Shown one piece after another: positions 25,489-52,871 of a DNA stretch of 64,000 bases (positions are counted from its first letter, which is position 1; each line of letters begins with the position of its first letter). The DNA lies in contig NC_134032.1 of NCBI RefSeq assembly GCF_964204645.1, positions 3,434,175 to 3,498,174 on the forward strand, given 5' to 3'. The position numbers and the translations under genes are program-made. The notes below the pieces were generated by a model, which had not been told where the DNA came from, did not search any database, and saw only the letters and a program-made list of their open reading frames with translations. The stretch is from Tubulanus polymorphus. Taxonomy: Eukaryota > Animalia > Nemertea.

Positions 25489-26736
25489 ATGAGTGGGAGT
25501 TATATAAGTCCTTCTAAGATTTCTAAAATATCTAATGCTATTAAAGCAGAAAGATCACATCATATAATTACTCATAACCCTTCAAATATTAATCCCGATG
25601 AAACTTTATATGTTAGAATTCCTAGATTAACACAAAATACTTTTTACGTTCCAAACAGTATTTATTTATCAGCCGATATAAAAGTATCTGGTCATGATAA
25701 TAATTATGTTTTTGATAATGTTGGAAGATATTTGATTAAAAAGTTAACAATAAAGATTGGTCCAGAAACAGTTTTCTCATTAGATGATTATAATTTATTT
25801 ATGCATTATAAAGATTTATGGTTAACTAAAGAAAATAGAAATAATATGATATTTCAAGGCATCCAATCAGAAAACCAAAATAAATTAAGATCAGAAGCTA
25901 ATAGCGCAATATTAACTAATGTTGTAGATAAATTGATAAAAAGTATATATGGAAGCAAATATAAAATTCCATTAGACTTTGAATTGATAAATAATAATGC
26001 ACCTTTACATAAATACGCAATTCAAGAAGACGTTATATTCGAAATAACATTTGCTCCTGTAAATGAAATTGTATTATCTAGCGTTGTTAAAGATATGAGT
26101 TGTAAATTATCGAATATATGTTTAGAATATGATACAGTAACTGATGAAAATATTTCAAGTATAATTCAAACTCAATACAATCAAGGATTTTCATTATTAT
26201 ATGATTATATTGATAAATTTAAAACCGTAACTATTAATGCAAATGATGAAATAATTAATGAGAATATTAACTTCCCAAGAAGATCTATTAAAGGTATACT
26301 AATATTTTTTACCATTGCAACATATACTAATGGCGCAATAAATGTTGATAATTATTATAATCCTGAAATAACAAAAGTAGAAATAACTATCGAAGGAATA
26401 GCAAATAAAATATTTTGTCAAGGAATGAGAATGATTGATCAATGGCCAGAAATTAGAAAACATTTTATGAATGAAAAAGTAAAATCATCTGAAAATTGTA
26501 ACATTAATCAAATTGATTATTATACCGGCAATAGATATGCATTATGGTTAGATTTTAGAACAACAGAGGATAATTCATTACATGGTTCTGGAAAAAAACT
26601 ACAGAACACTAAAGATGGAATACAATTATTCATGACAAAGAATAAAGGAATCAAAAATTTTAAAATGCACATTTATATTATATCTGACGCACAATTAAAT
26701 ATCGTAAATTCACAATTAGATAGTGTTATGTATTAA
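25489..26736 (+). CDS. Major capsid protein, double jelly-roll type (only copy in the cluster)
   Basis: 415-aa intact ORF with beta-rich pattern typical of Polinton-like MCPs (LIKKLTIKIG, YKIPL, LSNICLEYD, ALWLDF...HGSG, IYIISDAQLNI); genomic context. Confidence 0.75.
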   Translation: MSGSYISPSKISKISNAIKAERSHHIITHNPSNINPDETLYVRIPRLTQNTFYVPNSIYLSADIKVSGHDNNYVFDNVGRYLIKKLTIKIGPETVFSLDDYNLFMHYKDLWLTKENRNNMIFQGIQSENQNKLRSEANSAILTNVVDKLIKSIYGSKYKIPLDFELINNNAPLHKYAIQEDVIFEITFAPVNEIVLSSVVKDMSCKLSNICLEYDTVTDENISSIIQTQYNQGFSLLYDYIDKFKTVTINANDEIINENINFPRRSIKGILIFFTIATYTNGAINVDNYYNPEITKVEITIEGIANKIFCQGMRMIDQWPEIRKHFMNEKVKSSENCNINQIDYYTGNRYALWLDFRTTEDNSLHGSGKKLQNTKDGIQLFMTKNKGIKNFKMHIYIISDAQLNIVNSQLDSVMY

Positions 26737-26768
26737 AATTTTAACTTTAATAAAAAATCTTATATTAA

Positions 26769-27446
26769 ATGGAAGGAGGTAAAGTATATGAAAGAATCAA
26801 AGCTGATAAAGAAATCAATGATGATTTGTATTATGTAATACCTTATAAAAGAATAAATGAATATATTGGAACATTTTTATTAAACGAATTAAATCAATAC
26901 AAAGAATATTTAATTGAACGTAATAATAATATTGATATAAAAATAGAAGATAATATTGAAACAAAAATAGAAGATAATATTGAAACAAAAATAGATAATA
27001 ATATTGAAAAAAAAATAGAAGATAATGTTATACCTTCTACATCGAATGATGATAAGATTGAAACAAAAATAGAACATAATATTGAACCTAAAATAGAAAA
27101 ATCAAATGTTCAACCAAAAGATAACATCAGATGTATGTATTGTGAAGAAGATTTTGATAATTATAATGATTATTTATTGCACATCAAAAAAGATGAACAT
27201 ATTTTACAATTAGTAAAAACATATGCTAATATATATAAAGATAAATGCAAAGAGGATCAGAATTATTGTGCCTTCTGTAATGAATGTATAACAAAGGCTA
27301 ATTGGGCAAAACATTATAAATTAAAAACTAAAGGTGGAAATGATTCGGCCCATGCAATACAGGTATTTAAATCTTGGTGTGAAAAATGTAAAGAATATGT
27401 AATATATGATAAACAATTGAATCATAAATACTCAATTAAACATATT
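26769..27446 (+). pseudogene. Triple C2H2 zinc-finger protein, element A, 5' part (3' part at 43441-43807)
   Basis: CMYC..H..H, CAFC..H, CEKC..H; 24-bp (IEDNIETK)n repeats at ~26928-27023; split by element B. Confidence 0.85.
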
Positions 27447-27712
27447 AGTAATAGGGGTAATAGGCTTTCAGATCAAAGGTCGAACGGTTGAGCTCGTAAA
27501 AAATGAAAAACATAAAAATAATTACAATTTCTACTTGAATTACTCGCGAAACTCATAAAAATGAAAAATAAATTCTCACACGCTCGAATTTATTTTTCAT
27601 TTTATGAGTTTCACTCCTAATTCAAGTAGAAATTGTAATTATTTTTATGTTTTTCATTTTTACTCACCCGCCCGTTCAACCTTTAACCCGAAAGCCTATT
27701 ACCCCTATTACT
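27447..27712. repeat. Terminal palindromic hairpin of element B (266 bp)
   Basis: AGTAATAGGGGTAATAGG...internal loop TCGCG/CACTC...tip loop TCACACGCTC...CCTATTACCCCTATTACT. Confidence 0.95.
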
Positions 27713-27794
27713 CTTAAAATATTCATATATAAATGAATAACATTTAAATCATTGAACTTCTAAAATCAATTTTAATAAAAAATATAGTATTAAA

Positions 27795-30700
27795 ATGGAA
27801 GCAAATAAATACTACTGCCCAACATGTAATATCGATATAGATAAATCTCAAAAAGCAAGACATAATAAAACTAGAACACATTTAGAGAATAAATTGAAAC
27901 TAGAATATAAAGATGATATATTAGAAACTAAATTAGAAGAATTAAAGAATGAAAAAGAAACATACAAATGTGATACATGTAATCAATCATTCAGTGATAA
28001 AAGATATTATAATGAACATTTAAAATCTATAAGTCATATTAGAAATAAGAATAATGATATTTTAGGTGAAGATTATTTTGATAATGATAAGGATAAGAAA
28101 CAGAAGACAATTAAAAGAATAAAAAATAAATTAAACAATAAAAGACCATACATGGAAGATGTAAGAAAATATATTAATTCATTAGATAATAAAAAAGATA
28201 TAGAGATAACCGAAGCATTTAAAAGTGATATTGGTCCAGCAGCTATCGAGTTTAAATTTCATAAAGGAAAAACAATAGAAGAAAATAAAAAACATTTAGA
28301 AAATATGAAAGAAATAATAAAAATAATTACAGATGTTGAATATCCTAAAATAAGTATATCTTCTAAAGTAGAGTTTATAAAATCTGAAGATAAACCAATA
28401 TATAATATAAATTCTCATTCACAACATATTATATCTAAACAACATATAGATGATAAATTAAATAAATGTTATAATGAAATAAAAACTAAAATAGAAGAGA
28501 AATATTTTGAAGGATCTGGTTTAATATTTGATGAGATAATATTTATAACTTTACATGTTTATAACACAAAATATAATAAGTTAACTAAATCAAAACCAAT
28601 TGATGAAAATAATTTATCATATTATAAAGATGATAGTATAAATGGAACAAGTTATATTAAATTACCATTTAAAACTAATGGTGTAATAAATATACAAAAT
28701 TTTGATAATAAATGTTTTATATGGGCTATAATAAGTTGTTTACATCCTGCAACTTATAATATTTGTAGATTAACTCATTATAAACAATTTGAAAATAATT
28801 ATAAGATAGATAAGTATCCTGTTAGAATTAAAAATATTCCAAAAATAGAAAGAGATAATAATCTTAAAATAAATGTATTTGATTTAATTAAATTACCAAA
28901 TACAAAAGGAAATAATATTAAACATTATACATTAGAACCTTTATATCTATCAAAAGATTATGATTCAAACGATGTTATAGATATACTATATTATGAGAAT
29001 CATTATATGTGGATTAAACAAATAGATTTATTTTTTAGAACAGAAAGTGATCACCATAATAAAATATATCTATGTAGAAAATGTTTACATAAATTTAGTA
29101 ATGAAAGTACATTATTAAATCATAAACAACTATGTGATAATCATGATTATTGTAAATTAGTTTTACCAAATGAAAAGGATAAAATATTAGAATTCAAAAA
29201 ATATGATTACAAAAATAAAGTACCATTTGTAATATATGGAGATTTTGAATCATTAAATAAAGAATTAACAGATAAAGATAGAAAAGATATATATTATAAA
29301 AGAAAGAAATTAAATTCTAATGAAAGTGATTATTCAGATGAACCACCAATAACAAATACAATTAAAAAGATTCATCAATCAGCTGCAGCTTTTGGGTTAT
29401 ATATTAAATCTGATTATCCAGAACTAATTGAAAGTGAATATTATAATTATAGAAATGAAAATGTTATCAATCATTTTTGTGACTTATTAATTGAATATGA
29501 AATAAGATTTAGTAAATTATTGAATACAAATAAAGAAATAATTATGACAGAAGAAGATAAAGAAGAATTTGAGTTTGCAGATAAATGTTATTATTGTGAA
29601 AAACTATTTAATTATAAAGATAAAAAAGTAAGAGACCATGATCATTTGAATGGTAAATTTAGAGGTGCAGCGCATGAGGCTTGCAATTTACAAGCCAAAA
29701 AAGAAAATTTTGTCCCCATTATATTTCACAATTTATCGGGGTATGACGCGCATTTATTCATTAAGCAACTGTGTCATAAAATAGAAGAAATTAATAATGA
29801 AATAGAAATATTAAATTCAAAAAGATTAAAAGATAACAAAGTATCAACTTATAAATTTAAAATACTAGCTAAAACATCTGAAAATTATATTTCATTTCAA
29901 TTTGGTTGCATTAGATTTTTAGATTCTTATAGATTTCTAGCAAGTTCATTAGATAATTTATCAAAATCATTAGTTGATGATGAATTACAAATATTAAAAC
30001 AACATTATCAAAATAATAATGATTTTAAATTAATGAGATATAAAGGTGCAATTCCATATTCTTTCTATAAAAATCATAATGATTTTAAAATAACTGAATT
30101 ATTGAAAGAACAATTCTATGATGAATTAAAAAATGAATATGTTAAAGATGAAGTATATAATAGAACATTGAATATTTGGAATCATTTCAAAATAGAAAAT
30201 CATGGACAATTAGTAGATTTATATTCAAAATCAGATGTATTATTATTAACCGATATATTCGAAAGGTTTAGAGATGTAAACCTAAAATATTTTAATATTG
30301 ATCCATGTCATTGTTATTCATCACCAGGATTAACATGGGATTGTGGTTTAAAATTTACAGATATAAAAATGGATTTGTTAACAAATATAGATCAATTACT
30401 ATTATTTGAAAAATCTATAAGAGGAGGAGTTTCAGGTGTATTAGGTGATAGATATTTCAATGTAAATGATAACCCTGGATATAAGTTATTATATATAGAT
30501 GCAAATAATTTGTATGGTTGGGCAATGATGGAACCACAACCTTATGGGATGTTTGAATTAACTGAAGTTTTACAAATTGATAAATTTGATTGGAAGAAAA
30601 GAATTCTAGATATTGCAGATGATTCAGATACTGGTTACTTCTTCGTTGTAGATTTAGAATACCCTGAAAATATTAAATTCAAATCTAGAAATCTAGCATA

Positions 30701-31823
30701 TTGTCCCGAACATAAAACTGTTAAACATGAAGAATTATCAAATTATCAAAAAAGAATTAAACCTGATAATCATATTCATACTGAAAAGTTAATGGTAACT
30801 CAAGAAGATAAATATAATTATGTAGTACATTATAGAATGTTGAATATTTATTTGAATCAAGGAATGATATTAAAAAAAGTACATAGATATATTTCATTTA
30901 ATCAATCTAAGTGGTTAGAAAAATATATAGATTTTAATACTACACAGAGAACTAAATCTAAAACTGATTTTGAGAAGGATTTTTTTAAATTGATGAATAA
31001 TGCATTTTATGGAAAAACATGTGAAAATATTAGAAATAGAAATGATATTGAGTTAGTTAGTAATGGTAAAAGGATAAGACATTTGCAATCATATCCGAAA
31101 TTTATAGGCAACAGAATATTCGATGAAAATTTAGCTGCAGTTAAAATGAAGAGAACTTCTATGAAGTTCAATAAACCAATCTATGTTGGAGCTGCAATTT
31201 TAGAATTATCAAAGTTATTAATGTATCAATTTTACTATAACATATTACAACCTCATTTTGGGGAAAAGCATATTGAAATATTATATTTTGATACTGACAG
31301 TTATATACTAAAAATCAAGACAAATGATATAACAAAAGACTTAAAAATATTAAAACACCATTTTGATTTTAGTAACTATCCTAAAAATCATGAATTGTTT
31401 AGCAATGATAATAAAAAAGTTCCCGGTAAATTCAAAGATGAATTAGGTGGTGAAGAAATGATAGAGTTCATTGGTATTAGATCTAAAATGTATAGTTATA
31501 AAACTAAAGAACATGAAGCTAAAAAGTTAAAAGGAATAACCAAAAGTGTAGTAGAAAAGAATATTCATTTCAAAGATTACATCAATTGTATATTTAATGA
31601 AGAAGTTAGAAAACATAAAATGAAATGTTTAAGATCTGAAGATCATGAAATGTATATTGAAGAGATAGAGAAGATAAGTCTAAACCCATTTGATGATAAA
31701 AGATATATTTTAGATGATGGAATTCACACAATCGCGTATGGTTGCAATTTAGATGAATATATAAAATTCAAAAGAGAAGAAACAAAAGAAAATGAGATTA
31801 TGAAAAGGATTCTAGCGTGTTAA
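27795..31823 (+). CDS. polB: Protein-primed-type family B DNA polymerase with N-terminal Zn fingers, OTU-like domain and endonuclease VII-like insert
   Basis: 1342 aa intact; DNKCF...ENHY, YGDFES, CYYC...RDHDHLNGKFRGAAHEACN, FHNLSGYD, YIDANNLYG, KLMNNAFYGK, YFDTDS. Confidence 0.95.
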   Translation: MEANKYYCPTCNIDIDKSQKARHNKTRTHLENKLKLEYKDDILETKLEELKNEKETYKCDTCNQSFSDKRYYNEHLKSISHIRNKNNDILGEDYFDNDKDKKQKTIKRIKNKLNNKRPYMEDVRKYINSLDNKKDIEITEAFKSDIGPAAIEFKFHKGKTIEENKKHLENMKEIIKIITDVEYPKISISSKVEFIKSEDKPIYNINSHSQHIISKQHIDDKLNKCYNEIKTKIEEKYFEGSGLIFDEIIFITLHVYNTKYNKLTKSKPIDENNLSYYKDDSINGTSYIKLPFKTNGVINIQNFDNKCFIWAIISCLHPATYNICRLTHYKQFENNYKIDKYPVRIKNIPKIERDNNLKINVFDLIKLPNTKGNNIKHYTLEPLYLSKDYDSNDVIDILYYENHYMWIKQIDLFFRTESDHHNKIYLCRKCLHKFSNESTLLNHKQLCDNHDYCKLVLPNEKDKILEFKKYDYKNKVPFVIYGDFESLNKELTDKDRKDIYYKRKKLNSNESDYSDEPPITNTIKKIHQSAAAFGLYIKSDYPELIESEYYNYRNENVINHFCDLLIEYEIRFSKLLNTNKEIIMTEEDKEEFEFADKCYYCEKLFNYKDKKVRDHDHLNGKFRGAAHEACNLQAKKENFVPIIFHNLSGYDAHLFIKQLCHKIEEINNEIEILNSKRLKDNKVSTYKFKILAKTSENYISFQFGCIRFLDSYRFLASSLDNLSKSLVDDELQILKQHYQNNNDFKLMRYKGAIPYSFYKNHNDFKITELLKEQFYDELKNEYVKDEVYNRTLNIWNHFKIENHGQLVDLYSKSDVLLLTDIFERFRDVNLKYFNIDPCHCYSSPGLTWDCGLKFTDIKMDLLTNIDQLLLFEKSIRGGVSGVLGDRYFNVNDNPGYKLLYIDANNLYGWAMMEPQPYGMFELTEVLQIDKFDWKKRILDIADDSDTGYFFVVDLEYPENIKFKSRNLAYCPEHKTVKHEELSNYQKRIKPDNHIHTEKLMVTQEDKYNYVVHYRMLNIYLNQGMILKKVHRYISFNQSKWLEKYIDFNTTQRTKSKTDFEKDFFKLMNNAFYGKTCENIRNRNDIELVSNGKRIRHLQSYPKFIGNRIFDENLAAVKMKRTSMKFNKPIYVGAAILELSKLLMYQFYYNILQPHFGEKHIEILYFDTDSYILKIKTNDITKDLKILKHHFDFSNYPKNHELFSNDNKKVPGKFKDELGGEEMIEFIGIRSKMYSYKTKEHEAKKLKGITKSVVEKNIHFKDYINCIFNEEVRKHKMKCLRSEDHEMYIEEIEKISLNPFDDKRYILDDGIHTIAYGCNLDEYIKFKREETKENEIMKRILAC

Positions 31824-31851
31824 TCAATTTCAATAAAAATTTGTATAATAA

Positions 31852-32193
31852 ATGGAGAGTAAACAAGTACACAATGAATTCTTAGATAGAATTAAAGATA
31901 CTTCAAACGTCAAATCTGTAGATTATAAATTTAAAAAACTAACTGAGTTAACAATTCACAAGAAATATTTAATTACTAACATTGAAACAATTACTAATAA
32001 ATATGGAGATAAATTAGTAATTCATTTAGAATATGAAGGATTAAAAGGAAATAAATATAAATTCAGAACTTATTTACCAGATAGATTTCATAGATTATCA
32101 AGTGAAGATTTAGAAGAATTATGTTCTGGAGATTTCTATTTCGTATACAAAGGTAAGAATGAAAAAGGGCACCATGAAATAGATTTCGAATAA
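31852..32193 (+). CDS. Small OB-fold-like (putative ssDNA-binding) protein
   Basis: 113 aa, KKLTEL...KKYLI...TNKYG...YLPDRF...FVYKG pattern seen in Polinton-associated small proteins; function inferred. Confidence 0.6.
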   Translation: MESKQVHNEFLDRIKDTSNVKSVDYKFKKLTELTIHKKYLITNIETITNKYGDKLVIHLEYEGLKGNKYKFRTYLPDRFHRLSSEDLEELCSGDFYFVYKGKNEKGHHEIDFE

Positions 32194-32210
32194 GAAAATA
32201 TGTAAAATAA

Positions 32211-32966
32211 ATGGTGGAATTAAAAGAATACAGAATATATGTTGATTCTAGAAAACTTACAAATTATAAATCACATAATTTACTAGTACAATTAGGCAGA
32301 GAATTCAAGAATTGTGTAGATTTAAAATTAGTTAATATAAGTTTATGTAATTCTTTTTACAATGTATCGGATAAAACTTTTGAACATAGAGGGTTTATGA
32401 TTTATATGAGAAATAAAGATAAATGGTTTCATATATTTTTAAAACCAGGATTATATAATTTAGAATCATTAGCACAGGAAATTAATAGAAGAGCTCGGTT
32501 GAAAATCGGGGGCAATTCTGTATTTGAAATTAGATTTAATAAAATTGATAGTACTAATAAAATAAGAATAAAGATATCTAATGAACAACATAAATTAATG
32601 GTAAACAAACCACTGGCTAAAATGTTAGGAATTAAACCGCTTACAGTTACTGGAAACGCAGAAGGCAGCTCAAATATAATACCTTTTACGCACTTTTATA
32701 TTTATTGCAATTTAATCGAGCCCACAAAAACTTTCGAAGCAACTAAAGAAACAATTTGTAGTTCTAGTATACTAAATATTTTACCGCTAAAAAATGTTAA
32801 ACAATTTGGAACTCAAATAAATTATAATTTAACAGAATGTGATTTTAAACCTTGCATTCCTAAATTTAATAATTTTAAATTAGAAATAAGAAATCATAAT
32901 GGATACTTAATTGATTTAAATAACTTTCCTGTGATATATGAATTAGTTATAAGATGTAGAGAGTAA
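32211..32966 (+). CDS. Minor capsid protein (penton, single jelly-roll)
   Basis: 251 aa; IYVDSR N-terminus, PGLYN, IYCNLI, SILNILP, IDLNNFPVIYELVI C-terminus typical of Polinton/virophage mCP. Confidence 0.8.
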   Translation: MVELKEYRIYVDSRKLTNYKSHNLLVQLGREFKNCVDLKLVNISLCNSFYNVSDKTFEHRGFMIYMRNKDKWFHIFLKPGLYNLESLAQEINRRARLKIGGNSVFEIRFNKIDSTNKIRIKISNEQHKLMVNKPLAKMLGIKPLTVTGNAEGSSNIIPFTHFYIYCNLIEPTKTFEATKETICSSSILNILPLKNVKQFGTQINYNLTECDFKPCIPKFNNFKLEIRNHNGYLIDLNNFPVIYELVIRCRE

Positions 32967-32982
32967 TTTTATTGATATATAA

Positions 32983-33336
32983 ATGAATATAACTGTTGGA
33001 CCGAGTATATGTTTTGGATTTGATTTTAAACGTGAGAAAGAAATGAAATTTAATATTAATGATGTAATAACACATATCAAAAATATTGCATTTTCTAATG
33101 AAACAACATTTGAGTATGAAACAACAATAGATAAAGAAACTTTAAATGTAGAAAAGATTACTAATTTAATTAGAGAATCTTTAAGATTTTATGAAGTAGA
33201 TGAAGATTTTATAATCGATGATATTAAAAAAATAATTGAAATATATACAAATGAAACTAGTAATGAAATAAATGTTGAATTAATCATAAATAAGATAACT
33301 AAATATTTTGATGATAGTAATTTTTTTGATAAATAA
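32983..33336 (+). CDS. Hypothetical viral protein (117 aa)
   Basis: Intact ORF, conserved upstream motif, homologue in A. Confidence 0.75.
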   Translation: MNITVGPSICFGFDFKREKEMKFNINDVITHIKNIAFSNETTFEYETTIDKETLNVEKITNLIRESLRFYEVDEDFIIDDIKKIIEIYTNETSNEINVELIINKITKYFDDSNFFDK

Positions 33337-33558
33337 ATGAGTGATAATAAGTGGATAATAACTGGATTATATAATGGCGCATTACTATCAGTTGGAACTG
33401 TTGGTTATTCAATGGTATTAAAAAAAGTATTCAAAATGGGAAGTGTTAATGTTGATAGATTTGATATAAATGATATTTTGAAATTAACATTAGCAGTTAC
33501 TTTATCTAATTTAACTATTGATTATTTGGAAAAACAAAAATATATTCCTCCCATATAA
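33337..33558 (+). CDS. 73-aa putative membrane protein, element B
   Basis: Same protein as 21462-21683 with synonymous differences. Confidence 0.85.
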   Translation: MSDNKWIITGLYNGALLSVGTVGYSMVLKKVFKMGSVNVDRFDINDILKLTLAVTLSNLTIDYLEKQKYIPPI

Positions 33559-33582
33559 ATGCATAATTTTTTTGTTAAATAA

Positions 33583-34005
33583 ATGACATCTGCAATTATA
33601 ACTATTATAGGATCAGCAATTGTTAACGCTTTAGCATTTACTGGTGGTGGATATTTATTTAAACATATTGATAAAAATAGTTCATTAGGAGAACAAAGAA
33701 GACATAACTTAGCGTTAGAGAAATATAATAAAGCTGCAGAAGAATATAGAGAAAAGAGACAAAACTATATGGATTACATCAATAAAGAATTATATGATCA
33801 GAAGATTTCACATAGAGATTTTCAATCAGTTGATGATGCAATGAGTTTATATAACGCAGTAACCAATAAAGAAAAATTACATCTATACAAACCTAAATTA
33901 TCAGATTATTATACCCCGAGTAAAGAACAACAGAAATATGAAATAATTTGGATTTTAGGTGGAACAGTTATTGTTATATTTGTTGCTTATAAGTTCACTA
34001 ATTAG
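33583..34005 (+). CDS. 140-aa putative membrane protein, element B
   Basis: One residue different from A copy; two hydrophobic segments. Confidence 0.85.
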   Translation: MTSAIITIIGSAIVNALAFTGGGYLFKHIDKNSSLGEQRRHNLALEKYNKAAEEYREKRQNYMDYINKELYDQKISHRDFQSVDDAMSLYNAVTNKEKLHLYKPKLSDYYTPSKEQQKYEIIWILGGTVIVIFVAYKFTN

Positions 34006-34024
34006 TAATTTTTATTCTAAATAA

Positions 34025-34459
34025 ATGGAAGATAAAGTTGATAATATTGATATTATTCCTCATGATATAAATAAAACTAAATTAAAAACATATTTAGAAA
34101 AACAAATATTAGAATTTGAAAGTGACTTAAAGATAAAAAAGAAAAAATATTCAAAAAGTAAAATTATATATTATTTGATTATAAGTGGTTCGGTTACAAT
34201 TAGTTCTGTAATAACATTTCTAGCAATATTCAGTCCATTAACACCTTTAGCTATATCAATTGGTGTATTAGGATTAAGTTCAAGTGTTTTAACTGGTATA
34301 AGTTCAAAATTAAATATAAAAAGTAATAAAGAAAAAATTAAAACTAATATAAAAGAAATTAATAAATTAAAGAACACACTAGATTATATAATAAGTTTAA
34401 ATGGTTATATAACAGTTGAAGAACAAGATAAATTATTAAAAGAATTAATAAATTATTAA
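34025..34459 (+). CDS. 144-aa two-TM coiled-coil protein, element B
   Basis: IIYYLIISGSVTISSVITFLAIF and LAISIGVLGLSSSVLTGI flanked by charged helices. Confidence 0.85.
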   Translation: MEDKVDNIDIIPHDINKTKLKTYLEKQILEFESDLKIKKKKYSKSKIIYYLIISGSVTISSVITFLAIFSPLTPLAISIGVLGLSSSVLTGISSKLNIKSNKEKIKTNIKEINKLKNTLDYIISLNGYITVEEQDKLLKELINY

Positions 34460-34476
34460 TTTTTTTAGTTATATAA

Positions 34477-35784
34477 ATGGTAGATAGTTTTCCAAAAGCT
34501 TTCCAATACAATAAATCAATTAAATATAATATTCCAGCAATAGATTTTAATAAAGATATTACATATAGAAATGAAGTTTTAGATTCATTAACTAATTTAG
34601 AAATTTATGTTAATGAATCACAGTTTTTTATTTCTAAAATGGAAAATATATTTAATACACATGAAGTTACTTTTACTCGAGATGAATATCATATATATAA
34701 AGTAAAATCTAATATGAAGTATTGGCAGAATCAATTAAATTTTGCTGTTTATTGTGCAACAACAGGATGTGGAATAAGTTGGAATGATCATTTAAATAAC
34801 TTAGATAAAAATTTGAAGTATTCTGATTTAAAATTAATTCACACAATATTTAGATTTCACACATATTTTCAAATCAGAATAATATTAAATGAATTAGAAT
34901 GTCCTTTACCCGGGTCTAAATATTTTAAAGAATTGGATAATAATATTAATATATCCAAGTTTTATAAAATATGTAATGAATTTAATATAAATATTAATTC
35001 CGATTTTAGAGCGCATGGTAAATTGCAAGGTGTTGGTGAAGAGTATGAAATAAAAAGAATTGATTATATGCATAGAATTTCAGCTTATCATAATTATAAA
35101 ATTGATAATAATAATGGTTGGGTTTATTTCATTTTAGAAAATGGTGAAGGTTTTACAAAATCAGGTATACAAAGAATAAATCAATCTATTAGAATTTATT
35201 TGATATGTATTTTAGGCGCTCAAGTTGAAACAAGATCCCCAATAATTGGAAATGATAACACTTCATTCGATGCGCAGAAACAGTTTAAAGTTTTATTTGA
35301 AGATTCCATACATAATGATAAAAATAGATCGATTCCAGAAAACATTGTAAGATATCAAAATTATTTAGATAAATCTCATGTAAGACTTAATTATTGTATA
35401 GGCCCTAATCTATTAATTATTTCTAATGATTTAGTATTAAAGATGGGAAACATAATTGGTTATAATAATCTAATTAAAACTGCAACAATAAATAATTCAT
35501 TTGGATTAAATGATATAAATAAAAAGATTATTACTGCTCCAAAATTAATGGAAGGTGAAAAAAATAAAAAACATATTCAATCAACTGAAACTAAAACTAA
35601 GAATATTAAATTGGATAATGATTCCAAAATAAAAGATTATAATACATCAGAAGATATAAAAACTGATAATATTCAACATGATATAATTAAACTAAATGAT
35701 AATAATAAATCCCATGAAAATACTAAATTAGCTTTAACTTGTATAGGAATTGTAATCGGAGGAATATTATATTTTAAATTTTAA
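34477..35784 (+). CDS. 435-aa conserved viral protein with C-terminal TM anchor
   Basis: YWQNQLNFAVYCATTGCGISW motif; C-terminal LALTCIGIVIGGILYF. Confidence 0.85.
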   Translation: MVDSFPKAFQYNKSIKYNIPAIDFNKDITYRNEVLDSLTNLEIYVNESQFFISKMENIFNTHEVTFTRDEYHIYKVKSNMKYWQNQLNFAVYCATTGCGISWNDHLNNLDKNLKYSDLKLIHTIFRFHTYFQIRIILNELECPLPGSKYFKELDNNINISKFYKICNEFNININSDFRAHGKLQGVGEEYEIKRIDYMHRISAYHNYKIDNNNGWVYFILENGEGFTKSGIQRINQSIRIYLICILGAQVETRSPIIGNDNTSFDAQKQFKVLFEDSIHNDKNRSIPENIVRYQNYLDKSHVRLNYCIGPNLLIISNDLVLKMGNIIGYNNLIKTATINNSFGLNDINKKIITAPKLMEGEKNKKHIQSTETKTKNIKLDNDSKIKDYNTSEDIKTDNIQHDIIKLNDNNKSHENTKLALTCIGIVIGGILYFKF

Positions 35785-35800
35785 TTTTTTTATTATGTTA

Positions 35801-36817
35801 ATGGATGTAGAAGGTGGAGAAGATTATGAAATGGGAGAAATGGGAAATAATAATGAGGGATATATTGATGATGAACCACAACCCGATTTTAATGAAACTA
35901 ATATTGATAATGATGATGAATCAGCATATAATTCTAATTTAGCAGATAGTGGTTATAAAGCCCCATCAACAGATGAATTTGATAGAAGAACTAGATCGAG
36001 AATAAATCCTGAAAATGAAAATCAAGGTTTAAAAAAGGAAGATTTAGAAAATATTGGATTTATATATAAGTTTCAAGATGTATTTGAAAGATCTGGATAT
36101 AATATAAATTACAGAGGCGCCAGACTTTTAGTACAAGATTTAAAGTTTTTAGATGGTGAATATTATTATCATTTGAAAGATGATTACTATATTAATATCA
36201 CTAATCAAAGTACAAAACTAAGTAAAATATTAGCAGAATCAACTTTGCTTAAGTTAGAACCAGATAGAATTAAGAGAATAAGTAATAGTAATGAAATAAC
36301 TGATGTTACACAAGAAGAAAGAAATAATAATATAAGAGTATTTAGTGAAAGAATTGATAACTTATTTAAAATAATCGATAATAATTTAGAAACGGAAATG
36401 GAAGAGAATAGAGATAGATTAAGATCTTCAACACCTGAAACATCGAGAAGAGACACTCAACAAATTGATAATGATTCAAGTCAATTACAATTAGTATTAG
36501 AAAAACAAATTGATAGATTAAGAGATTCATTTGACGAAGAGATGAATAGTATTGGAATAAATCGAATACAATCTTTACTAGAAAAAGGATTACTTGATTT
36601 AACTGATGATGAATTAGAAGCATTTCCTGAACAAACACGTAGAGAAATTAAAGGTATGCAAGAATCAGCTGATAAAATTGCGCATGAAAAAAGTAAAAGA
36701 GATATTAAAATTAACATTTTAGAAAAAGAATTAACTGATAAAAATAAAGAAATAGAAAAATTAAAGTCTGATTTAGACCATCAAGTAATTGATGAAATAG
36801 AATATAGGATAAGATAA
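35801..36817 (+). pseudogene. Coiled-coil membrane protein, element B, 3'-truncated by deletion
   Basis: Homology with A ends at IDEIEYR (~36808) and jumps into the Zn-finger gene repeats. Confidence 0.85.
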
Positions 36818-37676
36818 TATTGAAACAAAAATAGAAGATAATATTGAAACAAAAATAGAAGATAATGTTATACCTTCTACATCGAATGATGATAAGATTG
36901 AAACAAAAATAGAACATAATATTGAACCTAAAATAGAAAAATCAAATGTTCAACCAAAAGATAACATTAGATGTATGTATTGTGAAGAAGATTTTGATAA
37001 TTACAATGATTATTTATTACACATCAAAAAAGATGAACATATTTTACAATTAGTAAAAACATATGCCAATATATATAAAGATAAATGTAAAGAGGATCAG
37101 AATTATTGTGCCTTCTGTAATGATTGTATAACAAAGGCTAATTGGGCAAAACATTATAAATTAAAAACAAAAAGTGGAAATGATTCAGCCCATGCAATAC
37201 AAGTATTTAAATCTTGGTGTGAAAAATGTAAAGAATATGTAATATATGATAAACAATTGAATCATAAATACTCAATTAAACATATTGGTACAGATAATGT
37301 AATAGAAAATCCAAAAGTTATAAATCCAAAATTTAATAATAAGAATATATTAGATTATCGGTGGTATAGAAAAACATTTATAGATTATTTATTGAGTAAT
37401 GATATAGTTACCATATTGAAAAAGTTAGATAACTTTAAACCAAATGTAACTTATGCAATGAACTTATTTGAACTTAAATATGATGATTTTAGAGAATTGT
37501 TAAATAAACATCCATCTAAAACTGAAATCGAAAATTATATTCCAAAAATATTTTCAAGAAAAACATTCAGGAATTATAAACTTGGGAATTATTTAGGACC
37601 TATACCAATAAAAATACAAAGGGATATATATTTAGAATACAATAAGCTTAAAGAAAAATATGAAAATGAAAATTAA
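36810..37676 (+). pseudogene. Zinc-finger protein, element B, 5'-truncated
   Basis: Contains the uninterrupted equivalent (CATATTGGTACAGATAATGTAATAG) of the site where B sits in A. Confidence 0.85.
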
Positions 37677-37680
37677 AAAG

Positions 37681-38294
37681 ATTATAGAATTCACTGTATA
37701 TTGATGGATGAATGGATGAGTTGGAAGAGTTGGATGAGTTGGATGAGTGGAAGAGTGGATGAGTATAATAATATATATATTTTACTTTTTAACACATAAA
37801 TTGGAAGAATAGTGAGTATAAATATAATATTTTTATTCTTTATTGAATTTAACACAAATTAAATTTAACACAATATATATTTATTATTATATGATATTTA
37901 TTATTTATTATTATATGACATTTATTATTTATCATTTTATTATTTATTATTTTATAAAAATATATTTATTATTATATGAAATTTATTATCTGTCATTTTA
38001 TTATTTTATAAAAATATATTTATTATTTATCATTTTATTATTTATCATTTTATTATTTATTATTTTATAAAAATATATTTATTATTATATGACATTTATT
38101 ATCTGTCATTTTATTATTTTATAAAAATATATTGATTATTATATGACATCTTCAAATCAAACTCTTACTGTTTTAAAAATAAAAAACATATGTAAATTAT
38201 ATATTATTACACTCTTCCATTCATCCACTCTTCCAATTCATCCAATTCATCCAATTCATCCACTCATCCATCAATATACAGTGAATTCTATAAT
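37681..38294. repeat. Central fold-back between convergent gene blocks, element B
   Basis: Inverted arms ATTATAGAATTCACTGTATATTGATGG(ATGAGTTGG)n ... (CCAATTCAT)nCCATCAATATACAGTGAATTCTATAAT around an AT-rich low-complexity spacer. Confidence 0.9.
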
Positions 38295-38310
38295 ATTTTG
38301 AATTAGGATT

Positions 38311-38925
38311 TTATTTTATAAATTTATATTCATATGGAAATTGTAATCTCATTAATAATTTTGAACCTTTATTATTTTTTAATTTATTCATATATTCATC
38401 ATGTAATTCAGTAGGTATAATTTGATTTTCTTCCAATGATTGTTGCATAGATTTTCTATCTTTGTTGTAGAATAAAACTAGAAATCTTATATTCTCTCTA
38501 AAATCTTTCACAATTGAATTATATTTCTGATTTAAAACCCATGTTGTTATCCCAAAATGTCTACCAGAGAAAGCTAAATAACATAACTCACTTTCTCTAA
38601 TTTTAGAATCATGTAAATTTGCGCAATCATCGATAATAAATAATGTATTAGATCCTTTATAAATATCTAATGTAATTTTTATACAATTATCTAAATTATC
38701 TTTCACTGTTTTAGAATTTAATATAATAAACTTTTTATCTTTAAAAACTATATCTCTATTATACGTTTCATTCATTTCATAAGTAGGACAGAATAATATT
38801 ATATTATCAAAATGATTCTTATAAATAGTTTCTAATAAATCTAATATGAAGTGTGTTTTACCGCAGTTTGTAACTCCAGTTATTAACATATTATGTGGTT
38901 CAAATATAAATAAATCTTTATTCAT
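38311..38925 (-). CDS. A32/FtsK-like genome-packaging ATPase, element B
   Basis: Walker A GVTNCGKT, Walker B LFIIDD, GRHFGITTWVLNQ. Confidence 0.92.
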   Translation of the reverse strand: MNKDLFIFEPHNMLITGVTNCGKTHFILDLLETIYKNHFDNIILFCPTYEMNETYNRDIVFKDKKFIILNSKTVKDNLDNCIKITLDIYKGSNTLFIIDDCANLHDSKIRESELCYLAFSGRHFGITTWVLNQKYNSIVKDFRENIRFLVLFYNKDRKSMQQSLEENQIIPTELHDEYMNKLKNNKGSKLLMRLQFPYEYKFIK

Positions 38926-40005
38926 TTATTCTTTTAATTTTACTAGACAAAATCCATTCATTAAATTTATCATCATATCCTTCATATTTCACCAAAGAAT
39001 ACTTTTTTCCTTTAAGAGTTTTTGTTTTCAATACTTTTTCTATTTTGTATTCTATTTCATCTGGATTTGGTACTAATGATAATTCTTGTTCATAAAAATA
39101 ACCTAATATTTCTTCATCTTTTAAATCAAACAATTTATAAACAAATGGTTTAGTTAATATTATCTTTTTAATTTTAAATATTTCTTCAGTAAAATTTGGG
39201 GTATAACCTTTATAAAATGTTTTTCTATATTTAGAAATTCTAACGTGTTGTCCTATTTTAAATTTAGGTTCTCCAAAATCATGTGTAACAAACGCTCCAT
39301 ATAAATTATTCCAAACTATTTCTGAATTTTCTTCTTTTCTAGCTTATATAGGTTTCATATTTATAGAACTATGTTTAGAATTATTATAACCTTTCACTAA
39401 ATCTTCTAATACATCGATATATTTATATGTTTCATTAGCGGTGAAATATTTCCACATTCTAGTTTTCAATGTTTTATTAAATCTTTCTATAACAGATGCT
39501 TTTTTATCTGAATGTGTTGAAAAATATTCTACATCGTTATCAGTTAATAGTTTTTTAAAATGTTTGTTATAAAATTCTTTACCTTCATCAAATTGTATTT
39601 TATCTGGGATAGCTTCTTTAAATATTAATTTGAAAGAATTTGTAACTTCTATACCAGTTTTATTTTTAATCGGGATACTCCATGCGTATCTACTGAATAT
39701 ATCTATAACATTTAGTATCCAAAAATATCCTTTGTTATATTCTTCAAAGATTTCATGTCAATCAAATCAGCTTGCCATTGTTGGTCAATATATGAAACCA
39801 TTACTTTTCTTGTTAAATATTTTTTATCCATCTTTTTATGAATTTGATATGTTGGTTGATTTTGTAACCATGATTTTAATTCACTATATTTTATATCACC
39901 ATTATCGGATTTAATTTTATTCCATAATTCTGAAACACTTGAATATGATACTTCACTTTCTGGGTTATAATATAAATCTCTTAAATATTGTTCTTTTTTC
40001 ATCAT
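38918..40005 (-). pseudogene. Retroviral-type (rve) integrase with chromodomain, element B
   Basis: WQADLIDM, frameshift near 39745, nonsense near 39344, C-terminal chromodomain. Confidence 0.9.
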
Positions 40006-40008
40006 ATT

Positions 40009-40368
40009 TCAATCCATTAATAATATTTTAGATTTAGTTTCAATGGTTTTATGATTTGACTTATTTTCTGGTATGATAGGTTTATTATCATTAGAATCAT
40101 CTTTATCATCGGATTTGAATTTTGATTTATATATTACACCGGATAATATAATAACTGTGATTAACCCAATTGTAATATATAAGTAATTATAAGATTCAGC
40201 TGTGCTGAATCTATTAGATGGATTATTATTTGAATCAATATCAGATTCATTTATATCAGTTAATTTCTTTTTCTTAGCTTTTTTTAATTCTGATGATCTT
40301 TTACCTAATTCTCTTGCCCATTTAATTTGTTTCTCGGATCTAGCCTTTTTCTTAACTCCATCACTCAT
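40009..40368 (-). CDS. Basic single-TM protein (119 aa), element B
   Basis: RSEKQIKWARELGK plus YITIGLITVIILSGVIY; homologue in A. Confidence 0.8.
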   Translation of the reverse strand: MSDGVKKKARSEKQIKWARELGKRSSELKKAKKKKLTDINESDIDSNNNPSNRFSTAESYNYLYITIGLITVIILSGVIYKSKFKSDDKDDSNDNKPIIPENKSNHKTIETKSKILLMD

Positions 40369-40966
40369 TTATTTTAGTTAATTTTTGTTCTGATTCATTT
40401 TCTGTTTCGATGTTTTGTTGTAGTACATCTGTTTCGTTCTTACCTGATTTATATTCCATATGCTTGATGTTCGAAAATGTTATGACGCCAGTAGAAATTA
40501 ATGTCATAACCGATCCTAATTGAAATGAAGCGTATCCAACCCATTTTTGTAATTCAGTCATAACTAAGTAGTCATTTTTCAAATCATTATATAATTTATT
40601 TTCATCATCAATTGGTATTAACTGGTTACATAACTTAGAATAACATTTGACAATACCATCTGAAATAGAATCATTTATTCTAGCTAATCTTGACTCTTCA
40701 TAAATCTTAAAATATTTTTTTACTTTTTCTTTGTTCATATTATCTAATTCTTGAAAAGTTATTGTTTTACCAATAAACTCTTTAGTTTTTCCACTCGCAA
40801 TCAATAGTTCTAGATGATGCTTACAATATAAATAGTACTCGTAATCAATATTACTATCAATTTTATTATCACATTTAGTTGCCACATTATCATTATCATC
40901 TGTTAAACCTAAATCTTCCAAAGTTTTTTCAACTTTAATATTATTCTTATTCGATTTCTTAGACAT
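40361..40966 (-). CDS. Hypothetical protein with C-terminal hydrophobic segment (201 aa), element B
   Basis: Intact, conserved core with 46264-46881. Confidence 0.8.
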   Translation of the reverse strand: MSKKSNKNNIKVEKTLEDLGLTDDNDNVATKCDNKIDSNIDYEYYLYCKHHLELLIASGKTKEFIGKTITFQELDNMNKEKVKKYFKIYEESRLARINDSISDGIVKCYSKLCNQLIPIDDENKLYNDLKNDYLVMTELQKWVGYASFQLGSVMTLISTGVITFSNIKHMEYKSGKNETDVLQQNIETENESEQKLTKINE

Positions 40967-41192
40967 TTATATTAGAGAAATTTAATAAGAATAGTATTAT
41001 AAGTATTCTTCAAATGATACTAGCTAGTTAAAGTTAAAGAATTCTAGTATTAGTTATTGTTTTTTTTAGTATTTTTTATTTGTGATATAAAGTATTCTTT
41101 TTTGAAAAGAAAATATTAAAAATTAAAATAGAAATAATAGATAGTTGAAGGTATGTAATTTTTATTATATTTTATTTGAGATATATTATTCT

Positions 41193-41861
41193 TTAACCAC
41201 TCATTAAAGACTCAACGTATTGTTCATTATTTGGATTATTATTCCATTGATCAATAAATTTCTTTGCCTTTGTTAACTGTTCTAAATATAACTGTAAATC
41301 TAGTTTATTAGATTTGATTTGATTTTCTTTCTTTTCTAAAGGTCTTAAATTTTTCCAACCCCAAATAAGTTTTTTATTGTATTCATCATTCATGTTAAAT
41401 TTAGATATTGGTAACACGTGATCAATGTGGTAATAATCCCCATAATTATCTATATTCATTTTATCATCGAATTGAAATATAATCCATGATTTGAGAAATT
41501 CATCTGAACAACCCAACAAATTAGATAGGGTTTCTGAATGCGTTTCTTTGTTGAATAATTTTGATACTTTAGATCTTAAGCATTGTTTCAATCTAAAATT
41601 AAGATCTGTTTGATATCTTTCTCTCATATATTTTGTCATATAATAATTATAATGTTCTATATTATCTTCTCGATATTGTTTAGTATATAGTTTAGTACAA
41701 GTTTTACAACAATATTGAAAACCATCTTTGCTAATCTTACGCTTACTAAATTCTGTTAAAGCTAATTTATCTAATTCACATTTAGAACACTTCTTGTAGT
41801 ATATGTTTATAACACCAGTGTTATTTGTAATATTGATAATTTGTGGTTGTTCTGGTTCCAT
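41193..41861 (-). CDS. HNH-type endonuclease with N-terminal Zn ribbon, element B
   Basis: KKCSKC...CCKTC; LLGCS; HIDHVLP...KNLRPL...EN..KSNK. Confidence 0.85.
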   Translation of the reverse strand: MEPEQPQIINITNNTGVINIYYKKCSKCELDKLALTEFSKRKISKDGFQYCCKTCTKLYTKQYREDNIEHYNYYMTKYMRERYQTDLNFRLKQCLRSKVSKLFNKETHSETLSNLLGCSDEFLKSWIIFQFDDKMNIDNYGDYYHIDHVLPISKFNMNDEYNKKLIWGWKNLRPLEKKENQIKSNKLDLQLYLEQLTKAKKFIDQWNNNPNNEQYVESLMSG

Positions 41862-42004
41862 TTATTATATGTATTTTTTTTACTAAATTGGTTAATAATT
41901 TTAGAATCCTCTTCCATTTCTCCGACCAACGTCATCCTTTTTCATTCCTCGCTGCTTTTGATAAGTTGTTTCGATTCCTTGATATCTAAATAATACCACT
42001 GGGT

Positions 42005-42390
42005 AAAAGCGCGCATTCGTGCGCGGTTTTTCTTAATGCGCATGCGTTAAGCATAATTATATATTCATTCTATAAATTCTGTAAAATAGAAACGACACAT
42101 GCGTTACATGCGTCACATGCGGCCATTGATGTCCGGTTTTGCTTAATGCACATGTGTTAATCATAATAGAAACAACCGATATGAAATATTTAAATAATAC
42201 CACTGGGTAAAACCGCTCTTATAGGAGCGTTTTTGCTTAATGCGCATGCGCTAATCATAATTATATATTCATTCTATAAATTCTGTAAAATAGAAACGAC
42301 CGACATGAAATATCAAAACGTGTTCGCATTAGGCAAACCGCGCATTCATGCGCGCTTTTGCTTAATGCGCATGCGCTAATCATAATTGAA
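42005..42390. repeat. Tandem double-hairpin units (4 in B; 2 in A at ~47985-48190)
   Basis: GC-rich stem-loop followed by CTTAATGCGCATGCG(T/C)TAA(T/G)CATAAT repeated. Confidence 0.8.
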
Positions 42391-43145
42391 ACGAATTATT
42401 ATTGAAACGACTGAACATAAAAATTCACCAAACAGATTTACACAATACATTATACAATTTGTTCAGTCGTTTCTTCCAATACATCATTTGATTTCTATAA
42501 ATACAATTTATAATTACAAACATTTTTTCAATTGTTGGTAAATATTTAACTACAACAACAAATGTTAAACTTAATCATTGGAGTCTCAATGTTTTTGAAA
42601 TTCTTATATAGTTTCTTCATCGATCTTTTGGTGATTCTATTGGTTCGATATCCATTGCTGTTGATTCCTCAGTCAGAAAGAGTATCTTGAGTTTCTCTAT
42701 CACTTCTTGATGCGTATGACGTTTTATTAATCTAAAAGATATTAGCGGTAACTCTAACCATCTAAAATATATACTAAATACACTTAAATATATCTAAAGG
42801 TTTCGTATTTAATAGCCTTAATAACTACAACAAACAGTACTTACATTTAGATTTATAATTGTATACTATAAACTCCTTATTTCGTTTCGAAAGATAGAAT
42901 ATCCTGAGCACAATATTACAGCGTATATCCATTTCCGGGGCGATTTCTAGAATGAACACGTCGTTGATTATGCCACGTCATCTAGTTCCGGTTCGAGAGT
43001 GTTCTACACGTTTCTGATTATGACGTGTCATAATGTCTCGTCGTTATAGTAACAACTGTAACAGCTGTGAATTTATAGATTTATTCTATAGCTCTGTACA
43101 TTGAATGTATATAGGTTAAAATAGAATCATTTTCTAGTATAAACA

Positions 43146-43352
43146 TCATATCCTCACGTATTGTTCATTATTTGGATCAGTGTTCCATAATTCAATAAAT
43201 TTCTTTCCTTTTGTTAACTGTTCTGAATATAACTGTAAATATTCTAGTTTCAATTTATTCTCTAAATGTGTTATAGTTTTATTGTGTCTTGCTTTTTGGG
43301 ATTTATCTATATCGATATTACATGTTGGGCAGTAGTATTTATTTGCTTCCAT
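43146..43352 (-). CDS. Chimeric right-end ORF: PolB N-terminal Zn finger + HNH C-terminal tail, element B
   Basis: First 38 aa match PolB-B; last 30 aa match the HNH C-terminus; equivalent ORF in A. Confidence 0.55.
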   Translation of the reverse strand: MEANKYYCPTCNIDIDKSQKARHNKTITHLENKLKLEYLQLYSEQLTKGKKFIELWNTDPNNEQYVRI

Positions 43353-43440
43353 TTTAATACTATATTTTTTATTAAAATTGATTTTAGAAGTTCAATGATT
43401 TAAATGTTATTCATTTATATATGAATATTTTAAGAGTAAT
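43240..43440 (-). repeat. Right TIR of element B (hairpin absent)
   Basis: Reverse complement of ~27707-27907. Confidence 0.9.
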
Positions 43441-43807
43441 GTAATAGAAAATCCAACAGTTATAAATCCAAAATTTAATAAAATGAATATATTAGATTAA
43501 ACATTTATAGATTATTTCTCGAGTAATGATATAGTTACCATATTGAAAAAGTTAGATTAAACCAAATGTAACTTATGCAATGAACTTATTTGAACTTAAA
43601 TATGATGATTTTAGAGAATTTTTAAATAAACATCCATCTAAAAATGAAATCGAAAATTATATTCCAAAAATATTTTCAAGAGAAACATTCAATAAATATA
43701 AACTCGGGAATCGTTCAGGAATTATACCAATGAAAATGCGAAGGAATATATGGTTAGAATATGATAAGCTTAAAGAAAAATATGAAAATGAAAATGAAAA
43801 AGATTAA
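43441..43807 (+). pseudogene. Zinc-finger protein, element A, 3' part
   Basis: Homologous to 37299-37676 with small deletions. Confidence 0.85.
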
Positions 43808-49176: not shown

Positions 49177-49350
49177 TTATAACGATTCAACGTATTTTTC
49201 ACTATGTGTTGAGTTCCATAATTCAATAAATGTTATTGCTTTAACCAACTGGACTAAAAACAAATGTGTTCTAGTTTTATTGTGTCTTGCTTTTTGAGAT
49301 TTATCTATACTTCTCTTACATGTTGGGCAGTAGTACTTATTTGCTTCCAT
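49177..49350 (-). CDS. Chimeric right-end ORF (57 aa), element A
   Basis: MEANKYYCPTCKRSIDKSQKARHNKTRTHL + FLVQLVKAITFIELWNSTHSEKYVESL; read manually, below the ORF track cutoff. Confidence 0.5.
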   Translation of the reverse strand: MEANKYYCPTCKRSIDKSQKARHNKTRTHLFLVQLVKAITFIELWNSTHSEKYVESL

Positions 49351-49353
49351 TTT

Positions 49354-52792: not shown

Positions 52793-52871
52793 TTTAATAC
52801 TAAAATTTTTATTAAAATTGATTTTAGAAGTTATTCATTTATATTTTATTCATGTATATGAATATTTTAAG

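Follow-up and report, generated by a model that had tools for sequence, protein, structure and literature searches.

Element B, a virus-like mobile element of the Polinton kind, lies within its sister element A in a 64,000-nt stretch of the Tubulanus polymorphus genome (the window). It was probably inserted by an rve integrase while both of its ends carried hairpins, and probably lost the right one later by a short microhomology-mediated deletion. An earlier note on this DNA had offered two origins for the arrangement: integration of a one-hairpin circle by crossover at AGTAAT, or ordinary insertion followed by loss of the right hairpin at TAAT. Our analysis supports the second, with its 6-bp target-site duplication (TSD) remaining an assumption because no TSD survives. 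The B junction would then be an ordinary decay product: in palindrome-ended elements, loss of a hairpin automatically leaves a false 'crossover' repeat, and since the ends of this family are palindromic, the AGTAAT repeat at both junctions is a by-product.

Nesting of element B and its target gene

The junctions of B (27447-43440) proved to be as first described, with CATATT|AGTAAT on the left (AGTAAT at 27447-27452), AGTAAT at 43435-43440 on the right, and a single hairpin, at the left end only (27447-27712). The segment of the B left terminal inverted repeat (TIR) with a counterpart on the right (27707..27908, forward strand) agrees at 199/202 positions with the B right TIR (43239..43440, reverse strand), which ends six letters into the palindrome. 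The left and right TIRs of A agree at 95/96 positions, versus 88/96 for B left against A right. Because the terminal repeats pair B with B and A with A, the proposed nesting of B in A is supported. The A right TIR is a remnant (49262..49357, reverse strand) that lacks its outer part and hairpin and is fused to element C (49352..53265, reverse strand), a reversed fragment of a third copy containing the polymerase gene and left end. We considered A and C as one composite element and rejected this, as their flanks have no duplication in common. No 4-8 nt duplication was found between the flanks compared in the window, where no element retains both ends.

The direct repeat of AGTAAT is present at both B junctions, as claimed, but carries no separate weight as evidence. 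The right TIR reverse-complements 27707-27908, whose first six letters (27707-27712) form the palindrome's inner foot. AGTAAT is therefore obligatory at any right end that retains this foot, and the right-hand copy is the foot itself and not target DNA. The last four letters of the right TIR are the microhomology.

B interrupts a Cys/His-rich (zinc-finger-like) gene of A, leaving a 5' half at 26769..27446 and a 3' half at 43441..43807, both on the forward strand. B has its own uninterrupted copy (36975..37676, forward strand), in which the site homologous to the insertion point lies at 37281-37312 and reads H-I-G-T-D-N-V-I-E-N-P, as previously translated. The A 5' half is 97% identical to this copy over 26971-27446; we ruled out this identity adjoining the junction as a sign of conversion, since A and B range from 83 to 97% across 500-nt segments. 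Removing B restores an in-frame A gene locally, but not beyond: the A 3' half, which is frameshifted and has 15-nt and 5-nt gaps relative to B's copy, stops after 19 codons (43498-43500, a stop read in B's frame). A frame kept across the restored junction would be expected by chance 1 time in 3. Searches for relatives of the zinc-finger-like protein returned 0/93 candidates at E<=0.001.

At the insertion site, natural versions of the interrupted gene have the longer form. Of the contigs listed, two cross the site, X1 contig 2 (depth 1,542 out of about 1,887) and X3 contig 17; each departs from the reference at 27450, where a long uninterrupted copy would be expected to break. Beyond it, the X1 contig continues as B's own sequence from 37291 but has A's base of 43457; this one base suggests an A-type copy, with a 5' side that is B-like. 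The empty target in these two contigs is thus the long B-type form, with no AGTAAT crossover core to match the one at the two junctions, which argues against the circle by a condition that the earlier note had itself set.

Terminal palindromes and the number of hairpins

The window contains three terminal palindromes: one of 194 nt at the left end of A (13419..13612), which starts AGTAATAGGG and ends CCCTATTACT; one of 266 nt at the left end of B (27447..27712); and one of 394 nt in C (52872..53265), followed by host repeat DNA. The B left hairpin has a DNA folding energy of -104.3 kcal/mol (z -24), and none of 200 shuffled sequences was equally stable. Exact matches to AGTAATAGGG occur six times in the window, against 0.07 expected, and all six are hairpin tips or feet. 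A and C start at the same letter as B, with unrelated flanks. Because AGTAAT begins 3/3 hairpins in the window and 2,263/15,615 reads leave the element there into mixed flanks, it is the terminus of the element family. The left junction of B is the tip used by other copies, and the tip has the form AGT...ACT in all three hairpins and in reads.

All three hairpins are left ends, in the same orientation and with no flip/flop seen; right hairpins number 0. The palindrome arms vary jointly while one mismatch between outer and inner arm remains fixed. A G-T strand bias was set aside as proof of function, as the three hairpins have a common ancestry; among inverted repeats, a host one (60825-61080) has a bias of 4:1 in the same sense and an internal one 2:6. 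We also rejected the endonuclease VII-like domain of the polymerase as a hairpin resolvase, given that polinton pPolBs often carry inserted homing endonucleases. That the hairpin ends have a function in this family, as mismatched hairpin telomeres working alongside protein priming, is a possibility we hold with slightly more doubt than confidence.

Read depths fit two hairpins per copy, with many different flanks. In run X6, reads left the reference at 27447 and 27446 (1,837 and 426 reads; agreement 0.33-0.35), and TIR depth was 2.08x that of the interior. Mirrored arm bins totaled 5.9x interior, where 4 is expected for two hairpins and 2 for one. Reads crossing the tip reached 1.10x the depth at the foot, where about 1 is expected for two hairpins and <=0.5 for one. 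The check for hairpins at both ends of other copies, which the earlier note had suggested, therefore also speaks against the circle. No loose ends at 27707 were found among the six positions listed for X6, the smallest of which had 426 reads and beyond which a further 580 lie; a minority of one-hairpin copies (below about 426 reads), or of short-form alleles, may exist. Short derivatives and members of other subfamilies may also raise the hairpin read counts; at 27749, for instance, 473 reads part from the reference.

Probable later loss of the right hairpin and competing explanations

We propose that B inserted after CATATT with a 6-bp duplication, and that a later deletion would have removed about 278 nt, made up of 260 from the hairpin, 6 from the duplication and 12 from A, joining the ends at TAAT. 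The two sides of the join have four letters in common exactly, and after one more letter they also agree in AGA; in this AT-rich DNA, a microhomology of 4 nt would arise by chance in roughly 4% of cases. The extruded hairpin was probably where slippage or end-joining made the join. Against this scheme, no B-in-A copy retaining the right hairpin was seen. According to the available text of PMC11754738, long inverted repeats in E. coli are deleted at 2-12-nt direct repeats, which offers a parallel by analogy only for the loss from B.

The main rival is loss during integration itself, which we consider unlikely. Here the integrase would have joined the left tip, and host end-joining would have sealed a right end already shorn of its hairpin at TAAT, at the cost of about 12 nt of A, so that neither a TSD nor a right hairpin was ever at the locus. 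This reaches the same final sequence in one event instead of two, it accounts for an exact left end and a right end at microhomology, and one-ended retroviral integrations are known, with no fitting paper among the six listed by a literature search. However, it requires a damaged donor. The A right end was also lost, by a plainly post-insertion deletion, and the A 3' half has other small deletions, which makes deletion after insertion a frequent event in this cluster.

The circle has been largely refuted and seems very unlikely. It would have had one hairpin between its two TIR arms and entered A by crossover at AGTAAT, or been opened at the hairpin foot and joined in. Such a circle is geometrically possible, because palindromes at both ends make the left outer and right inner arms direct repeats; the sequence of B is just what cutting a one-hairpin circle at its foot would give, and all three elements in the window have one hairpin only. 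But a crossover requires AGTAAT in the target, which the long-form contigs lack, the flanks of A and C have no AGTAAT partner, and the read counts fit two hairpins. A homology-driven crossover, moreover, has no reason to hit the exact integrase tip. In the available text of PMC12220804, rve integrases produce 6-bp TSDs, and circular forms are associated with tyrosine recombinases; none of the latter was detected by Pfam among 19 proteins scanned (most of B's ORFs), though a distant homologue or an enzyme supplied in trans is possible.

We give as little weight to an artefact of assembly or library, in which a real right hairpin was collapsed. Palindromes are hard to sequence, no contig among those listed spans the segment compared with reads, and that comparison covered the left junction. 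Yet three palindromes of equal or greater length were assembled intact, and the join is clean, falls on a microhomology and takes letters of the target with it. Equally improbable is a combined reading with functional hairpin telomeres, in which strand 3' ends would fold back on themselves with fixed G-T pairs, the left outer and right inner arms would act as direct repeats enabling one-hairpin circles to loop out and leave solo hairpins, and B would be a re-integrated circle.

Gene content and comparison with known systems

The cluster carries Polinton hallmarks: rve integrases, a double jelly-roll capsid protein (in A) and TIRs with AG(T)...(A)CT tips. The predicted capsid gene (25489..26736, forward strand) is absent from B; its protein model (pLDDT 83.9) has iridovirus, PBCV-1 and mavirus capsid proteins as top Foldseek matches (best E 4.8e-16), and a PDB sequence search with the capsid alignment gave 0 matches. 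B encodes a polymerase of 1342 aa (27795..31823, forward strand) with an endonuclease VII-like insert, for which Pfam reports Endonuclease_7 only. Its YxDTDS, GSG and Cys/His motifs are common to its relatives, one of which matches PF03175, and these motifs and relatives point to a protein-primed family B polymerase (pPolB); we take GSG to be TP-like and Cys/His to be vOTU-like. B also has an A32/FtsK-type packaging ATPase (38311..38925, reverse strand; Pox_A32 E 1.6e-12, with a second match at 1e-11) and an rve integrase (38921..39748, reverse strand) with one stop codon, 94% identical to that of A (44790..45629, reverse strand; rve E 5.6e-08), which has a chromodomain (Chromo E 2.2e-04). No maturation (adenain/Ulp1) protease was matched by Pfam among 19 + 6 proteins, part of the A and B ORFs.

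Scans of viral_contigs found 0 matches to the exact hairpin-foot pattern and no confirmed locus with the integrase, polymerase or capsid alignments. A metagenome scan kept 80 of 92 confirmed loci, none of which matched the zinc-finger-like gene or hairpin or had two complete ends. Folding was run on 14/80. The tip of L035 (34% capsid identity) is a plain AGTAGT with no long palindrome; the palindrome of L068 contains repeats of telomere type and may not mark the end of an element. We know of no direct demonstration of how Polintons excise or start replication.

Tyrosine-recombinase PLVs and Cryptons, as described in parts of PMC12220804 and PMC12747079, resemble only the circle model, in integrating as circles with no TSD and a short direct repeat at both junctions; here there is an rve integrase, no tyrosine recombinase detected, and a target in which the hexamer needed for crossover is missing. 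Poxvirus flip/flop telomeres and AAV ITRs (PMC8956199, in part) are likewise AT-rich terminal hairpins with mismatches kept, and hairpin ends can be deleted at short direct repeats (PMC11754738, in part). Poxvirus and parvovirus genomes have fold-back or covalently closed ends; in the B family the observations are of folding potential and conserved mismatches, with no flip/flop seen.

Animal Polintons/Mavericks (adintoviruses; Polintoviricetes) share the pPolB, rve integrase, A32 ATPase and double jelly-roll capsid protein, and excerpts of PMC8097293 and PMC8502044 give them TIRs of a few hundred bp with 5'-AGT...ACT-3' tips. They differ in having (AGT)2 or (AG)3 tips instead of AGTAAT, and the available part of PMC8097293 mentions no terminal palindromes or hairpins, whereas each TIR here opens with a 194-394-nt palindrome; B has also lost its capsid gene, right hairpin and TSD, and the scanned ORFs yielded no maturation protease. 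The accessible portion of bioRxiv 10.64898/2026.07.28.741278 describes terminal palindromes in Halocafeteria seosinensis endogenous virophages and PLV subtype 4, with a putative hairpin role proposed. As here, these lie inside TIRs next to the host junction in elements with an rve integrase. The one pictured there is 52 nt and such ends go preferentially with non-pPolB replication genes, unlike the longer, mismatched palindromes here, which sit in an animal element that has pPolB and in which TP-like and vOTU-like motifs are conserved. What remains of interest, next to the shorter ones in that 2026 preprint, is that an animal Polinton encoding pPolB has terminal palindromes of 194-394 nt whose mismatch between outer and inner arm is fixed. 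With such ends tied there mostly to elements without pPolB, a high-copy family that combines a protein-primed polymerase with long terminal palindromes provides a concrete candidate structure for a role in origin, packaging or excision.

Three related Polinton copies

Compared with itself, the window shows three copies that are related to one another. A starts at 13419, B spans 27447 to 43440, and C (49352-53265) is a reversed fragment joined to what is left of A's right repeat. The elements are Polintons, judged by their polymerase, integrase, ATPase, capsid and terminal inverted repeat (TIR); a Pfam search of 19 + 6 proteins gave no maturation protease. In the first 19 of these, Pfam recognised A32 ATPases and an rve integrase that carries a chromodomain, whereas a tyrosine recombinase was looked for without a match. 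Structural matches to the predicted fold of A's 415-aa ORF (pLDDT 83.9) are capsid proteins with a double jelly-roll, from iridovirus, PBCV-1 and mavirus (best E 4.8e-16). Of 3,773 candidates, 931 are relatives of this capsid, one of them named, from a bivalve, at 38%. B's 1342-aa polymerase retains YxDTDS, and upstream of this motif the polymerase sequences checked carry a GSG motif (8/10) and a D-x-x-C-F/His pair (9/10), which we take to be the linking loop of the terminal protein and the vOTU site. Such a loop and site have been described for polinton pPolBs (10.1101/2024.03.18.585575).

B has no capsid gene and a stop codon in its integrase. Compared with A (24915-26970), B (36808-36811) is missing about 2 kb, capsid gene included, and the join falls at 24-nt tandem repeats of a zinc-finger-like gene. 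A's polymerase gene contains a DNA transposon (14792-16949) with 32-bp TIRs (CAGGG...CCCTG), a 7-bp target duplication and a short ORF with a zf-AD match (E 1.8e-06). Both A and B carry an ORF with an HNH-like motif (41193-41861 and 47160-47834; HNH_4 match weak, E 0.12), the start of whose 5' region recurs at 43151-43250. An AT-rich imperfect inverted repeat, possibly a shared terminator region, lies between two convergent gene blocks in B (37663-38312) and A (43826-44137), and a non-coding array whose ~65-nt repeats contain a TTAATGCGCATGCG-type core lies near the right end of each (41982-42654 and 47996-48434). The closest metagenome relatives (L001, L002, L003 and L005; capsid 70-75% and integrase 65-83% identity) keep capsid, ATPase and integrase together, and no recognisable end is reached in any. 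Directly outside C, an intronless rhodopsin-family receptor ORF (54209-55273; 7tm_1, E 2e-18) points to an animal host. A host inverted repeat of about 256 nt (60825-61080), probably a small non-autonomous transposon, adjoins a repeat of 480 nt, of which an inverted copy lies at 5239-5715.

An earlier note on this DNA had placed B inside A, with AGTAAT at both junctions. The junction letters are confirmed, and so is the nesting: 95/96 letters are identical between A's two terminal repeats, left and right, versus 88/96 for B left and 87/96 for C against A right, which assigns the sequence flanking B on either side to a single element. Across 49262-53265, A's right TIR ends at the polymerase start codon and is followed by the 3' part of C's reversed polymerase gene. 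This join, with about two shared letters, is likely a large deletion between tail-to-tail copies.

Terminal hairpins and the repeated AGTAAT

B begins with an imperfect terminal palindrome of 266 nt (27447-27712) whose DNA fold reaches -104.3 kcal/mol (z -24), a stability equaled by 0 of 200 shuffles. The hairpins of the three elements are 194, 266 and 394 nt long; starting at the tip, the outermost letters of the element, their stems are perfect for 26, 23 and 25 bp. Over the first 23 letters, 2-6 alignment columns differ between elements while the arms match within each; at position 29, all three have AAAGGTCGA in the outer arm and AAAGGTTGA in the inner. Among mismatches in the first 50 letters that can form G-T pairs, 13 favor the strand with its 3' end at the tip and 1 the other (A 3:0, B 6:1, C 4:0); the favored strand is also the better-folding one in each hairpin. 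Because the hairpins share ancestry and the host inverted repeat gives 4:1, this bias is a hint. We suggest that the displaced strand's 3' end likely folds back, with a putative role in replication, excision or packaging; in vaccinia, retained mismatches matter for packaging (PMC8956199). The long palindrome is not universal: the tip of L035, a distant relative, is a plain AGTAGT.

The ten-letter AGTAATAGGG occurs six times in the window (0.07 expected), each time as the tip or the foot (the inner end) of one of the three hairpins. A and C begin at the identical letter within unrelated flanks, and no 4-8-nt duplication was found across any flanks compared. AGT is an ordinary Polinton tip, as the termini of vertebrate Mavericks read (AGT)2...(ACT)2 or similar, and their target-site duplications (TSDs) are 6 bp long (PMC8097293). 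Since the element end is a palindrome, AGTAAT repeats at the foot; of the four occurrences of TTTTAAGAGTAAT, three are the feet of the elements and one is B's right junction. Thus, the right-hand AGTAAT is element DNA by symmetry and is uninformative about a crossover.

Probable loss of the right hairpin of B

B's right end matches 27707-27908 in reverse at 199/202 letters and breaks off six letters into the palindrome. The left end is an exact tip. At the right stands a foot, and four letters there are shared (TAAT, with AGA one letter away). We consider normal insertion followed by microhomology deletion of the right hairpin the probable history. The rve integrase would have inserted B after CATATT with a 6-bp duplication, and a later deletion would have removed 278 nt on the right: 260 of hairpin, 6 of duplication and 12 of A. 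Plasmid-borne AAV ITRs lose hairpin ends at 2-12-nt direct repeats (PMC11754738), in bacteria and hence by analogy only. Against this history stands the count of three left hairpins and zero right in the window, for which we hold two deletions responsible, one of them the event that brought A and C together. A single-step insertion with a clipped right end yields identical final letters, but we regard it as unlikely.

Ten runs under the same species label, from two studies, were available; five contain part of the stretch, and four were compared with 27150-28500. In the raw-read run (X6; about 12% sampled, 15,615 reads placed; a different study from the contig runs), reads departing from the reference number 1,837 before 27447 and another 426 before 27446, and past these points their letters agree at 0.33-0.35: there are many insertion sites and a single tip. 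If each copy had one hairpin, the arms should stand at 2 times interior depth, the tip ratio should not exceed 0.5 and about a thousand reads should depart at 27707; with two hairpins, the expectations are 4 times, about 1 and none. Mean depth was 851 in the interior (28070-28391) and 1,773 in the TIR (2.08 times). Two mirrored arm bins summed to 4,979, or 5.9 times the interior, a hairpin depth inflated by other subfamilies (473 reads diverge at 27749) in data where no read or contig spans the whole element. Reads across the tip were 1.10 times foot-bin depth, and no departure at 27707 was among the six X6 loose ends listed, the smallest of which had 426 reads, with 580 further rows beyond that listing. 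The reads diverging at 27749, and contigs of run X1, match the hairpin and first TIR letters up to that point; we read them as a second subfamily or a non-autonomous derivative with identical ends. Reads also skip 56-108 nt at many places within 27498-27703: loop and upper-stem length vary widely among copies, and the tip is fixed.

The earlier note had also raised an atypical route, a one-hairpin circle integrated by crossover at AGTAAT, to be abandoned if A-type alleles carried the long form, the uninterrupted gene as in B's own copy. X1 contig 2 (depth 1,542 of about 1,887) matches A's 5' half up to 27450 and continues as B's gene from 37291, but with A's base of 43457; X3 contig 17, which resembles A at two sites at which X1 contig 2 resembles B, also departs at 27450. 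An AGTAAT target would match as far as 27452, so both crossing contigs listed fit the long form, the A-type label of the X1 contig resting on a single base. Run X2 had zero depth at the target site, and X6 coverage there was roughly 50-fold, its continuation falling among the rows beyond the listing. The in-frame A gene obtained by removing B is a weak argument, as A's 3' half, which has gaps of 15 nt and 5 nt against B, stops after 19 codons. Although the left outer and right inner arms form direct repeats that make a circle geometrically possible, it needs target letters that the site does not have, and we consider this route, for which we found no support, very improbable; the junction is probably an ordinary decay product. 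Misassembly of the right junction is an equally slim prospect.

The zinc-finger-like version at 27150-27446 is present in few copies, its X6 depth being about 50 and that of the polymerase about 850, although A and B each have it; this could reflect local spread of one subfamily or divergence past the mapping limit.

Comparison with known systems

TSDs of 6 bp are the product of rve integrases; tyrosine recombinases are the enzymes associated with circular donors and terminal direct repeats (PMC12220804, PMC12747079). The elements show neither feature of circle-integrating elements that we tested, with no tyrosine recombinase among the proteins scanned and no crossover core in the target as read from the contigs listed. 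In the openly readable literature searched, PMC11296320 and PMC8502044 included, we found no paper on circle integration by animal Polintons or on long terminal palindromes in them. Halocafeteria virophages and one PLV subtype have terminal palindromes adjoining TSDs; these measure 52 nt in the case pictured and occur mostly with non-pPolB replication genes, and longer or pPolB-linked cases may exist (10.64898/2026.07.28.741278). What distinguishes A, B and C is their long, mismatched terminal palindromes, a variant among known Polintons.
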